Of a DNA stretch of 64,000 nucleotides, positions 15,053 to 20,318 are shown piece after piece; the first letter of the stretch is position 1, and every line of letters starts with the position of its first letter. The notes under the pieces were generated by a model. That model was not told where the DNA came from, did no database searches, and saw only the letters and a program-made list of their open reading frames with translations. The position numbers and the translations under genes are program-made. This DNA is from Spirochaetota bacterium (GTDB taxonomy: Bacteria; Spirochaetota; UBA4802; UB4802): positions 15,808 to 79,807 of the forward strand of contig JAOAIH010000004.1 in the NCBI GenBank assembly GCA_026414805.1, read 5' to 3'.

Positions 15053-17044
15053 ATGGAACAGATAATAAAACGATACAATGAGTTAATTGATTTAATAAAA
15101 AAATACAACTACTATTACTATACGCTGGATAAACCTCTTGTAGATGATGCAACCTATGATGAGCTTTTGAAAGAGCTTATTGCATTGGAAGAACAATATC
15201 CTGAGATTGTGCGGCAGGATTCGCCCACTAAAACTGTTGGTGCCGTTATTCAGACTTCATTTAAAGAAGTGCGGCATACCCCGCCTATGCTAAGTTTAAG
15301 CAATGCAATGGATGAGGGGGAATTAAATGAATTCCATCAACGCTGTAGCAAATTATTGGGCACAAGTACCATTGAATATTGTGCCGAACTTAAGTACGAT
15401 GGGCTTGCAGTTGAACTTGTGTACCAGAATGGTGTATATGTGCAGGGTTCAACGCGGGGTGACGGTGAAGTGGGTGAAGATGTTTCGGAAAATATTGCAA
15501 CCATAAAAAAAGTACCAGCACGGCTGCATGGCAATGTACCCCAATATATCAGCGTGCGAGGTGAGGTTATAATGCGCCATGGTGAGTTTGAACGTTTGAA
15601 CCAACTAAGAAGGAATAATGGCGAGCCAGAATTTGCCAACCCAAGAAATGCTGCTGCAGGATCGCTGAGGCAGCTTGACCCTGTTATCACTGCACAGAGG
15701 GAGCTTGATATTGTGCTGTATGGAATTGGAAGGATTGAGCCAGAAGGGATGGCGATGACACAAAACCAGCTGTATGAATTGTTTGCAAGTTTAGGTTTGC
15801 CGTCACCACAGTATTATACAGTGGGTTTGCTACAGGATGTTAAGCAATTTTATACATATTGGATGGAACATAGATATACGCTTGATTTTGATATTGATGG
15901 GGTGGTAGTAAAAGTTAACCGCTTTGATTTGCGCGATGCTATGGGGAGCACTTCCAAAGCTCCACGGTGGGCTATTGCGTGGAAGTTCCCCGCACGAGAA
16001 GCTATTACAGTGCTCAAATCGGTTGATTATCAGGTTGGGCGCACAGGGCTTGTAACACCAGTAGCTAATTTGGAGCCAATTAATATTGGTGGTGTTCTGG
16101 TGAAGCGCGCAACGCTCCATAACTTTCAGGAAGTAAAGAGGCTGGACATTAAGATTGGTGATACCGTTAAGGTGATTCGTGCCGGTGATGTAATCCCAAA
16201 AGTGGTGGAAGTGCTAAAAGACAAACGGCAGGAAGGTAAAGAGATAGTACCTCCTGATAGGTGCCCTGCATGTAAATCATTGTTGCAGCAAGAAGATATA
16301 TATATTCGCTGTGTCAATCCACAGTGCCCTGCAAAAGAGTATGAGACACTGTGTTTCTTTGTTTCAAAAGATGGTATGGATATTGAATATGTAGGTCCTG
16401 AACTTCTTAAACGCCTGTATGAACAGAAAAAGATAAAAACCATTGCTGACATCTATGCGCTCAAGCGCGATGACCTTCTGCAGATTGAGCGTATGGGCGA
16501 TAAAATTGTGGATAAGATACTTGATTCAATTAATCAGCGAAGAGTGGTACCACTGTCACACTTTTTACGGGCATTGGGCATTCGCAATGTTGGTGACCAT
16601 ATAGCAAAGGTTATTGCACGTCATGTACGTTCATTGGAAAAATTACAGGAGCTATCGCCGCAAGAACTCATGACAATACCTGAAGTAGGTCCGGGTGTTG
16701 CCCAGTCAGTGTATGATTTTTTCCATAATGAAGAGTCATTGGGGATTATAAACAAGATGCTGCAAAATGGTGTAACCGTAACCGAGGAAGCTGTAGAAGA
16801 AGCGCAGGAGAATCCATTTAAAGGAAAGACCGTTGTTTTTACTGGAACTTTGCAAAGCATGACCAGGCAGGAGGCTGAGCGCCTAATTGAGTCACTAGGT
16901 GGGAGAGCTTCAGGTTCGGTGAGCAGCAAAACTGATTTTGTGGTTGCTGGAGAGGAAGCCGGTTCTAAACTTGAAAAAGCACGCAAACTCAATGTGCGTA
17001 TTCTTTCAGAAGAAGAATTTTTGAAGATGGCTGGAAGGGGATAA
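15053..17044 (+). CDS. ligA: NAD-dependent DNA ligase LigA
   Basis: Adenylation motif [13 protein letters not shown] fold, zinc finger (CPACKS...CVNPQCP), HhH motifs and a C-terminal BRCT (KTVVFTGTL). Start chosen at [15 protein letters not shown] (15053) rather than the upstream TTG at 14999. Confidence 0.9.
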
Positions 17045-18639: not shown

Positions 18640-20318
18640 TGCGAATAATCTACTGTACCGATATCCATGGCGCATTTGAACGTGTGCGCGAGCTACTATA
18701 TGAGACGATAGCCGATGTGTATATAATCTCCGGCGATTTGATTGATATACCTTTTTATAATATGGATAGTGCCATTCGCTATTATGAATTGCAGATGTAT
18801 TTTGATACTATGCGAAAGCAGATGGGCCGTGATGATGTTACTGTGGAAGACTTTGTTGATGAATTGCTGGAGATGCCGCATATAACCGAGGACGTTGCGG
18901 AGTTAGGTACTAAGTTTCAGCAATATACAATACGTGCACGCCGTGTAATGCAGCAAAAATATAAAGTGCTAGCTAACATTTTTAGCTTTAAACCTCAAAC
19001 GTATATATTTGCACTGCCTGGCAATTATGACATGGATTTGAAATACACATCGCTTCATGACCGAGACCTTCATATGCACTGGTATCTGGTGGAAGATCAG
19101 GTGATAGCAGGATATGGTGGTGCAGATGTGTTTACCGCGGGGATTCCGCAAAAGTATGTTGTACCTTACAGAGCCGGCATTGGAATTGATGACCGTAAAA
19201 ACGAAATGTATAATTTTTTTAAAGCAGTGCGCCCCACTATAATAGTAACGCATCAGCCTGCACATGGAGTGCTGGACTGGCTTGCCCCGGTTGGCCCAAC
19301 AGGTTCACCGGCATTGAGGACGTATTGTGACAACAACCCTGTTATCCTGTGCTTAACTGGCCATATCCATGGTTCATGGGGAATACAGGAGGTTGAGCAT
19401 ACACTGTATTTAAATCCTTCACCATTTGGTGATATCACCACTGTGCGCCATGATGTGCTAGAAGGGGGTTTCTTCTACCAGATAGAATTAGAGGAAGGTA
19501 AGGTAGTCCAAGTGCTGTACAGAAAAATGTATAATGAGCGTGTGTATGATCTGGCTGAATATGTAAAGAAAGATGGTATGTGGGCTGAAACTATCATTGA
19601 TGAAGGCCGATTCAATGCAAAAAAGAAATTACATAATATTGATATGAATATTCAGCAGTACTCGCACATACCTGAAATTGAACTGTTCAAGGAAATCAAA
19701 AATTTTTTCAGAATGTTCCAGACCGAAGAATCAGAATTACGCGTTGAAAAGCTTGAGGAGATAGTTAAGCGGATTGAGCCAATGATAGAAGATATAGCAA
19801 TGGATGTTGTGGGCTCGGTCAATGTGGGACTGTCGCAGCCAAGTTCGGATATTGATATAGTACTGTATTTGCGATGTGGATTGCAATGTACCGATAATCC
19901 TTTATCATGCAATTGTTGCAAGGATGCAGCAGAAATGATACGAAATGCATTGCAGGATGAATATAAATTTGAAGTACTTGATTGTATTGATTTAAACGAG
20001 GTTGAAAGAAGTATAAAAGAAAAAAATTATGAATCTGAAACATTACAGCGGTTTGTGGCATATCGTTCTATCTGCCGACCAATTAACTACCGCGTCATAG
20101 CACCTTTGGAAGATATGCTTAATCAGGATATTGAGTTCAGAAAAGAGGTGGAGGGGAGCATCAGATCATATTTTAAAATATTTGTCACAACATCACAACA
20201 CATACGTTCGTTTAAAAAATATGAAAACCGGTTGAAAACAATTGGGATACGCCTGCCTGATTCAATCCGCCGAAAAATATTACAGTATCTGCAAAGTGAA
20301 GAAGACAAAGAATTTTAG
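18639..20318 (+). CDS. Fusion protein: N-terminal calcineurin-like metallophosphoesterase plus C-terminal minimal (Pol-beta-type) nucleotidyltransferase domain
   Basis: 559 aa. Phosphoesterase motifs DIHG, GDLID, GNYD, THQ and GHIHG in residues 1-290. Nucleotidyltransferase motif VGSVNVGLSQPSSDIDIVLYL (hG[GS]x9-13Dh[DE]h) near residue 390, plus a cysteine cluster CGLQCTDNPLSCNCC. The ATG overlaps the lnt stop (TGATG). Confidence 0.75.
   Translation: MRIIYCTDIHGAFERVRELLYETIADVYIISGDLIDIPFYNMDSAIRYYELQMYFDTMRKQMGRDDVTVEDFVDELLEMPHITEDVAELGTKFQQYTIRARRVMQQKYKVLANIFSFKPQTYIFALPGNYDMDLKYTSLHDRDLHMHWYLVEDQVIAGYGGADVFTAGIPQKYVVPYRAGIGIDDRKNEMYNFFKAVRPTIIVTHQPAHGVLDWLAPVGPTGSPALRTYCDNNPVILCLTGHIHGSWGIQEVEHTLYLNPSPFGDITTVRHDVLEGGFFYQIELEEGKVVQVLYRKMYNERVYDLAEYVKKDGMWAETIIDEGRFNAKKKLHNIDMNIQQYSHIPEIELFKEIKNFFRMFQTEESELRVEKLEEIVKRIEPMIEDIAMDVVGSVNVGLSQPSSDIDIVLYLRCGLQCTDNPLSCNCCKDAAEMIRNALQDEYKFEVLDCIDLNEVERSIKEKNYESETLQRFVAYRSICRPINYRVIAPLEDMLNQDIEFRKEVEGSIRSYFKIFVTTSQHIRSFKKYENRLKTIGIRLPDSIRRKILQYLQSEEDKEF

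Follow-up and report, generated by a model that had tools for sequence, protein, structure and literature searches.

Several enzymes combine a nucleotidyltransferase (NTase) fold with a metal-dependent phosphoesterase acting on the same substrate, among them GlnD (NTase and HD domains, with uridylyltransferase and uridylyl-removing activities), Rel/SpoT (HD and synthetase domains), the CCA-adding enzyme (NTase and HD domains) and the PolX-PHP proteins. Here, we examine a fusion that appears analogous to these enzymes in its architectural logic. It is encoded by a gene, called X below, that follows the genes ligA and lnt in a stretch of 64,000 nucleotides from a member of the Spirochaetota (positions 15,808 to 79,807 of contig JAOAIH010000004.1, GenBank assembly GCA_026414805.1), and this whole stretch is referred to as the window. 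Unlike the enzymes listed above, X carries a calcineurin-type metallophosphoesterase (MPE) rather than an HD or PHP domain, the MPE is placed first, and there is no sequence kinship beyond the Pol-beta superfamily.

The described proteins closest to the N-terminal half of X by fold and profile include aq_1956 (2yvt) and TT1561 (1uf3), which are COG2129 'Icc-related' MPEs and are themselves uncharacterised; they differ from X in standing alone, with no NTase, and the sequence identity is approximately 13 %. The nucleotide or bis-p-nitrophenyl phosphate phosphodiesterases MPPED2 and MJ0936 have the HxPPxGxxD...G(S/C) and GHxHE motifs in common with X, but lack both the NTase partner and a helical insertion of approximately 75 residues with an invariant KY motif, and have GNHE or GNHD where X has GNYD. 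The phosphatase of Clostridium thermocellum Pnkp and lambda phosphatase share the MPE superfamily and the dinuclear ligand set, but X lacks the histidine of their GNH(D/E) motif and has no P-loop kinase, adenylyltransferase ligase or Hen1 neighbour in approximately 120 loci.

For the C-terminal half, Cid1, GLD-2, the terminal uridylyltransferases (TUTases) and MTPAP share the GS...SDxD palm signature, and PF22600 is matched at about its gathering score. X differs from these terminal nucleotidyltransferases (TENTs) in having no PAP-associated/PAP-OAS1 domain and a core of three rather than five strands; fold E-values are 0.03 or worse over approximately 95–160 aligned columns, and the helical bundle of X has no detectable similarity to them. 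MNT/MntA and ANT(4')/LinB have the same minimal core and all-helical domain as the X NTase, in approximately 225 residues, but X has no HEPN partner, no R-x4-6-H motif and no antibiotic-resistance context. Nothing on the X family was found in the literature on the fusion, COG2129, aq_1956, TT1561 or RNA-repair NTases. The combination of MPE and NTase, the private helical modules and the distribution of the family thus appear to be undescribed, though both domains are of known kinds.

The X family

A search with X returned 573 relatives at E<=1e-3, the best 120 of which were full-length and at least 59 % identical, and a protein identical to X is on record from a Spirochaetes metagenome-assembled genome (MAG). 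When one genome per species was scanned, 316 genomes were found to encode a relative. Locus analyses of the fused gene used the best 80 of these 316, all with products 58–93 % identical to X, which comprise approximately 48 Spirochaetota (Leptospirales-like MAGs) and 31 MAGs from Syntrophales and other 'Deltaproteobacteria'. Spirochaetota and Syntrophales versions share 58–63 % identity, about the same as deep Spirochaetota branches share among themselves, which points to very strong constraint or else to transfer of the gene between these anaerobes. X is also more conserved than LigA and Lnt throughout the genomes that share the ligA-lnt unit, the identities of X, LigA and Lnt in four such genomes being 93, 89 and 83 %, 88, 79 and 70 %, 71, 60 and 48 %, and 67, 60 and 47 %, respectively.

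Database names of the relatives are limited to 'metallophosphoesterase', 'Icc-related predicted phosphoesterase', 'uncharacterized protein' and 'hypothetical'; no characterised member was found, neither NCBIfam nor Pfam has a model specific to the family, and the pairing of MPE and NTase is not represented by a solved structure. A search of PDB sequences with the whole of X retrieved only Trf4 (E 0.7). The protein is acidic, with an isoelectric point (pI) of 5.2 (median 5.5 over 87 members, none above 8), and no nucleic-acid-binding domain was detected using Pfam. The AlphaFold2 model has a mean predicted local distance difference test (pLDDT) score of 81.8 and a predicted template modelling score of 0.80. 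Together with the preserved catalytic residues described below, the conservation of the sequence shows X to be a real protein, strongly constrained, whose two catalytic centres both appear to be active. The gene and the parts of its product are as follows.

18639..20318, + strand, gene X, MPE-NTase fusion of 559 aa (homologue search, Pfam and AlphaFold2 model)
18639..19463, + strand, MPE catalytic domain, residues 1–275 (PF00149, ligand conservation and fold match)
18756..18986, + strand, helical insertion between MPE motifs II and III, residues 40–116 (model helices 42–61, 69–77 and 84–115; conservation)
19464..19673, + strand, small beta-sheet module and linker, residues 276–345 (model strands 278–319, helix 322–329)
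19674..20018, + strand, Pol-beta-type NTase core, residues 346–460 (PF22600, PF01909, invariant residues and model)
19875..19919, + strand, Cys-rich loop between NTase strand 2 and helix 3 (C413, C417, C424, C426 and C427)
20019..20315, + strand, C-terminal helical bundle, residues 461–559 (invariant R476, S524, K527, Y528 and R531)

A preliminary description of this DNA, made from the sequence alone, had predicted an MPE joined to a Pol-beta-like NTase with a cysteine cluster, and this architecture was borne out by the Pfam matches, the metal ligands and C413–C427. The domain profile searches that it proposed found PF00149, PF22600 and PF01909.

The metallophosphoesterase half

Residues 1–245 of X match PF00149 (Metallophos) with an E-value of 8e-10, and 18 of 22 relatives of this half match Pfam Metallophos_3. 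The metal ligands are D8, H10, D33, N129, H205, H242 and H244, in the motifs DxH, GD, GN(H)(D/E), H and GHxH; in a set of 87 sequences, H205 is kept by at least 90 % and the other six ligands are invariant. Motif III departs from the usual form, being GNYD (G128-N129-Y130-D131) and not GNH(D/E); GNYD is invariant in the main clade and present in nearly all members. The histidine of GNH(D/E) is the general acid normally used in monoesterase chemistry, and its loss fits diesterase chemistry. An MPE of this kind, without the general-acid histidine, suggests a diesterase rather than a monoesterase. The insertion between motifs II and III carries an almost invariant stretch, TIRARRVMQQKYK, and its Y108 is invariant in the wider family, distant stand-alone relatives included.

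In fold comparisons, this half showed the beta-sandwich MPE fold, with 25 matches in the PDB at E<=1e-3, every one of them an MPE. The best is aq_1956 of Aquifex (2yvt; E 1.6e-9, target TM-score 0.70), and MPPED2, GpdQ, UshA, Mre11 and LpxH come next. Sequence-profile matches were to MPPED2 (1e-9), MJ0936 (1e-6), aq_1956 (1e-6) and TT1561 (4e-3). Though a likeness to the phosphatase domain of Pnkp had been proposed, neither Pnkp nor lambda phosphatase turned up in the 50 best fold matches or in the 23 profile matches of this half; motif III is GNYD and the nearest relatives are aq_1956, MPPED2 and MJ0936. Hence, judged by sequence and fold, the MPE appears closest to the nucleotide-phosphodiesterase type and not to the Pnkp/lambda-phosphatase branch.

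The nucleotidyltransferase half

PF22600 and PF01909 both match residues 350–450 of full-length X, PF22600 falling just below its cut-off (25.9 vs 27 bits). With the isolated C-terminal half, both models exceed their cut-offs (PF22600 28.4 vs 27 bits, PF01909 25.9 vs 21 bits), and among 25 family members PF22600 was found in 15 (E<=0.01, best 6e-9) and PF01909 in 13. The catalytic residues G392-S393, D404-x-D406 and D448 are invariant in the 87 close and 25 diverse sequences, D448 being the third carboxylate, and the modelled NTase strands lie where they would be expected. Modelled alone, the C-terminal half has a pLDDT of 90.3; in the model of X, values are 57–70 over residues 331–360, where the linker ends and the NTase begins.

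Beyond these profiles, the similarities of the NTase half are weak. The best PDB sequence match in a profile search was Cid1 (E 0.01), and no fold match at E<=1e-3 was obtained in the PDB or BFVD. Weak fold matches were to minimal NTases (2rff, MntA and HI0073), GLD-2, TUTases, LinB, ANT(4') and DrrA, with the core further matching TUT7, MEAT1, Cid1 and CutA. Alignments over the full length of this half, also weak, were obtained with ANT(4'), LinB and AAD(9), and over the core alone with MNT and MntA. For the C-terminal helical bundle, neither Pfam nor the fold searches (E<=1e-3) gave a match. When 25 fused and stand-alone sequences were aligned, its residues R476, S524, K527, Y528 and R531 proved invariant, and the bundle may be a module for binding a nucleoside triphosphate (NTP) or the acceptor. 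We conclude that the NTase half is a distinct Pol-beta branch consisting of a three-strand minimal core and a private helical domain.

Within the Cys-rich loop, conservation reaches at least 90 % for C413, C417 and C424, in the main clade only, and C426 and C427 are not conserved. The cluster was considered as an essential metal site; this was not adopted because the cysteines are absent from several divergent lineages with intact active sites.

Pairing of the two halves

A profile search for the two halves among 1.84 billion representative proteins found full-length fusions, stand-alone MPEs of approximately 310–360 aa and stand-alone NTases of approximately 225–236 aa. To examine the split genes, 34 metagenome loci were fetched via stand-alone NTases, and 10 of these proved to be fusions. 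In 20 of the 24 left, the separate NTase gene directly follows its cognate MPE gene on the same strand, in most cases overlapping it by 4 bases. The four in which no MPE gene was seen within the fetched flanks (L087–L090) are AT-rich (26–30 % GC). In L087, L089 and L090, the NTase gene has an opposite-strand PilZ-like gene as its neighbour (the L088 sequence stops before this point), and L087 has an HslU-like gene nearby.

In one split-gene lineage (L093–L103 and L113), the MPE and NTase genes close a tight cluster of four same-strand genes that starts with a gene for a 785-aa protein with seven transmembrane segments and an HD domain (PgpH-like), followed by one for a 346-aa HExxH membrane (site-2) protease. 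Downstream of this cluster is a convergent gene for diaminopimelate decarboxylase (lysA), as is also the case after the fused gene in 18 Spirochaetota loci.

One of the two active sites is missing in some divergent members. Among 15 divergent full-length cluster representatives, four (P0124, P0126, P0134 and P0137) have lost MPE ligands and retain an intact NTase, and in three (P0121, P0123 and P0132) the MPE is intact but the NTase carboxylates or the GS motif have been lost. The loss of either active site was independent in different lineages. Degeneration of one domain is a pattern familiar from Rel/SpoT and GGDEF-EAL fusions.

Because the halves are fused in some lineages and encoded by adjacent genes in others, there is strong evidence, drawn from gene arrangement, that the MPE and NTase activities work together and would need nothing else encoded nearby. 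As far as can be read from the residues and the gene arrangements, both active sites are intact in the window protein and the halves are obligately linked across lineages.

Gene order and the ligase link

In the window, X is the third gene of a run transcribed in one direction.

15053..17044, + strand, ligA, NAD-dependent DNA ligase of 663 aa (NF005932 835 bits, TIGR00575 797 bits and Pfam domains)
17042..17046, + strand, TAATG junction, one-base overlap of the ligA stop and lnt start (sequence reading)
17044..18639, + strand, lnt, apolipoprotein N-acyltransferase of 531 aa (TIGR00546 287 bits; Pfam LNT_N and CN_hydrolase)
18637..18641, + strand, TGATG junction, one-base overlap of the lnt stop and X start (sequence reading)

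LigA was identified by the equivalog NF005932 (835 bits vs a cut-off of 369) and its domain set is complete, six being found with Pfam, the adenylation, OB, Zn-finger, HhH and BRCT domains among them. The open reading frame (ORF) delimited mechanically begins at TTG 14999; the ATG at 15053 was adopted as the start, and the family model matches from residue 6 on, counting from this ATG. Lnt matches TIGR00546 (287 bits vs a cut-off of 133) and contains PF20154 and PF00795. Shine-Dalgarno-like purine runs lie 5' of all three starts, namely AGGTGG (15044–15049) for ligA, GGAAGGGG (17033–17040) for lnt, just 5' of TAATG, and AAGGAAA (18627–18633) for X, just 5' of TGATG. The terminator scan found a single site, within lnt, where approximately five sites are expected by chance, and promoter-like sites occur at chance frequency.

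The gene order and both overlaps are as given in the preliminary description, which had regarded the content of this operon as unusual and X as co-expressed with the ligase. One-base stop/start overlaps are among the commonest junctions of same-strand bacterial genes and routine in operons. Hence, the overlaps point to an operon but are not remarkable, and while the order stands, the junctions are routine rather than unusual. Co-expression with ligA in the source genome is likely, and X probably shares a transcript with ligA and lnt there and is coupled to them in translation.

The preliminary description had also taken the ligase link as a clue to function and proposed that other genomes be examined for the fusion next to ligA. 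To count the link, the neighbours in the window were compared by tblastn with the 80 loci, and the 61 loci with at least 3.8 kb of upstream DNA were treated as informative. ligA was found upstream of X in 14 of the 61, all from the Spirochaetota closest to the window, and lnt adjoins X in 18 loci, again all from these Spirochaetota. No ligA was found at X in any of the 31 Syntrophales/deltaproteobacterial loci or in five divergent fusion lineages. Conservation of the fusion beside ligA, whose absence the preliminary description had named as telling against its reading, is thus largely lacking, and the use of the association as a functional clue was rejected because the link is confined to the nearest Spirochaetota sub-clade.

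What adjoins X elsewhere was surveyed by clustering all flanking ORFs in the 80 loci and the 34 split-gene loci, with the five divergent lineages looked up in addition; neighbours in relatives were named by reading the sequences and not by profile search. Clustering found a convergent diaminopimelate decarboxylase gene in 18 loci, an ArsR-methyltransferase gene in 15, a chemoreceptor gene in 13 and a copper ATPase gene in 12, with genes for adenosylhomocysteinase, GlgX, glyoxalase II and others also among the commoner neighbours. The neighbour sets differ by clade: lnt and ligA; lysA; the ArsR-methyltransferase; the chemoreceptor; a glycosyltransferase; a PgpH-like HD protein and a site-2 protease; or none. 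In the five divergent lineages, the neighbours are entirely unrelated, and one of them has the gene isolated between opposite-strand genes. No conserved third gene accompanies X in this survey, only clade-specific housekeeping neighbours, and no conserved linkage to RtcB, Hen1, an RNA ligase or a kinase was found in approximately 120 loci. A cell-envelope theme among the neighbours (lnt, a GT4 glycosyltransferase, the site-2 protease and lysA) was considered too weak and was not used.

Since other clades carry unrelated neighbours, the ligA-lnt-X order is clade-specific synteny. The comparison of loci shows the coupling to ligA to be a local, lineage-specific gene order, on which the family as a whole does not depend.

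Possible functions

Our preferred, though tentative, interpretation, to which we give somewhat less than even weight, is that X acts autonomously, both writing and erasing a nucleotidyl phosphodiester carried by a small molecule or a protein. We favour it because the MPE resembles nucleotide phosphodiesterases and lacks the general-acid histidine, because the architecture is acidic and compact with no nucleic-acid-binding module, because either domain has been lost in particular lineages, as in Rel/SpoT or GGDEF-EAL proteins, because the halves are linked, fused or adjacent, with no other constant partner, and because the minimal core and helical bundle resemble, weakly, those of ANT(4'), LinB, AAD(9), MNT and MntA. 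In such an enzyme, both halves would act on one kind of bond, a phosphodiester joining a nucleoside monophosphate (NMP) to a hydroxyl acceptor. The NTase would bind an NTP with Mg2+ via G392/S393, D404/D406/D448 and the R476/S524/K527/Y528/R531 cluster and move the NMP onto the acceptor, releasing pyrophosphate, and the dinuclear MPE would hydrolyse the same kind of diester and release the NMP, so that between them the two halves would control how much of a nucleotide-derived small molecule, or of an NMP mark on a protein, is present. The opposing logic of the activities and an acceptor other than a polynucleotide are what we infer from these features. We consider it unlikely that the MPE-NTase pair is specifically the synthetase and hydrolase of a new nucleotide signal, or of a reversible NMP modification, in anaerobic Spirochaetota, Syntrophales and a few others. 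The Cys loop might make the pair metal- or redox-responsive.

Several points weigh against a writer and eraser of this kind. At the sequence level, the NTase palm comes closest to RNA-specific terminal nucleotidyltransferases (PF22600 in 15 of 25 members; Cid1 at E 0.01), a match that would favour an RNA 3' end as acceptor. We know of no signalling nucleotide made by a minimal NTase of such size. No gene for a target protein was found near X in the loci surveyed, though one is often expected where the target is a protein. A pathway of two sequential steps would likewise be compatible with the loss of one domain in some lineages, and an acidic pI argues only weakly against polynucleotide substrates.

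The main alternative is that X heals and tails RNA 3' ends, the MPE clearing a 2',3'-cyclic phosphate or 3'-phosphate and a Cid1/TENT-like NTase then extending the 3'-OH, in a logic analogous to that of the bacterial CCA-adding enzyme with an HD phosphohydrolase domain. The isolated NTase half barely passes PF22600 (an MTPAP-like central palm), 15 of the 25 members match it with a best E-value of 6e-9, and Cid1 ranks first among PDB sequences. Further support comes from the fold matches to GLD-2, TUT7, MEAT1, Cid1 and CutA, and the CCA-HD and PolX-PHP fusions are precedents. However, Cid1 and the fold matches are all weak (E >= 0.01) and confined to a generic core of approximately 90 residues, and Pfam found neither a PAP-associated nor an RNA-binding domain in X. 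The acidic pI is family-wide, the MPE is not of the Pnkp/lambda type and lacks the monoesterase general acid, and linkage to RtcB, Hen1, an RNA ligase or a kinase is not conserved. RlaP (PF10127), an RNA-ligase-associated NTase family described in PMC12776372, is not among the Pfam matches of X at E<=0.1. On balance, a heal-and-tail role appears somewhat unlikely. Another reading, in which X would clean and fill 3' ends at DNA nicks or gaps as a minimal analogue of PolX-PHP, the MPE unblocking, the NTase adding a nucleotide and LigA sealing, could draw on the co-oriented, overlapping ligA-lnt unit in the window and its closest relatives and on the presence of Mre11/SbcD nucleases among the more distant MPE fold matches. 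It is very improbable given the counts of 14 of 61 informative and 0 of 31 Syntrophales-type loci with ligA, the position of lnt, an unrelated membrane enzyme, between ligA and X, the lack of HhH, 8-kDa, fingers or thumb elements of DNA polymerase X, and again the acidic pI. The preliminary description had offered end healing or nucleotide signalling; the idea of a ligase-coupled end-healing enzyme was not borne out, and the signalling suggestion fits the data somewhat better.

The weak fold matches of the NTase half to MNT-HEPN complexes, ANT(4'), LinB and AAD(9) (E 0.03–0.3) also raise the question of whether X belongs to a defence, toxin-antitoxin or resistance system, as an MNT-like antitoxin, a CBASS-like cyclase, or an aminoglycoside or lincosamide nucleotidyltransferase with an accessory phosphoesterase. 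At the domain level, PADLOC matched the MPE to PDC-S10 (3e-12) and stand-alone NTases to PDC-S09, and NCBIfam gave a weak MntA match. However, PDC-S10 and PDC-S09 are generic candidate families, the only defence models to match, and no partner genes of a system were detected; with 14.3 bits, the match to the MntA model NF047752 falls far below the cut-off of 60. No HEPN toxin gene lies beside X in the window or the surveyed loci, nor is there a CBASS effector or mobile-element context, the setting being housekeeping, variable but chromosomal. X moreover evolves more slowly than LigA (93, 88, 71 and 67 % vs 89, 79, 60 and 60 %), which is atypical of defence genes, and no homologue is named a resistance enzyme in any source, although annotation as an antibiotic nucleotidyltransferase had been raised as an outcome that would tell against an end-healing or signalling role. 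A defence or resistance function is thus highly unlikely. The rest of the probability is reserved for functions other than those considered above.

Other genes around the run

A 483-aa protein with a signal-peptide-like N-terminus is encoded just upstream of ligA (13380–14831, + strand) and contains nine WG-containing beta repeats (PF14903, E 2e-98). Approximately 70 bases past X, on the + strand, is the gene for a 2243-aa hybrid histidine kinase (20390–27121; the mechanically delimited ORF starts at TTG 20327) with at least 12 PAS domains, one GAF domain, and HisKA, HATPase and receiver domains. Because this gap has no terminator-like site, the kinase gene may share the X transcript.

On the - strand at 11952–12942, adjacent ORFs of 206 aa and 100 aa correspond to one intact 329-aa ORF in relatives (L003:1177-2166). 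The window copy is frameshifted, since the match switches frame near residues 62–85, and it is either a pseudogene or an assembly error. The ORFs have no Pfam match, and an HPHLQ motif only hints at a HIT/GalT-like enzyme.

Implications

The adjacency of ligA at X should not be carried over into annotation as 'DNA repair'. At least 316 species-level genomes encode a member of the X family, which surpasses the neighbouring essential DNA ligase in conservation yet has no assigned function. Once its substrate is known, a function would be available for a widespread gene of uncultured anaerobes, and this might reveal a new nucleotide-based modification or signal.

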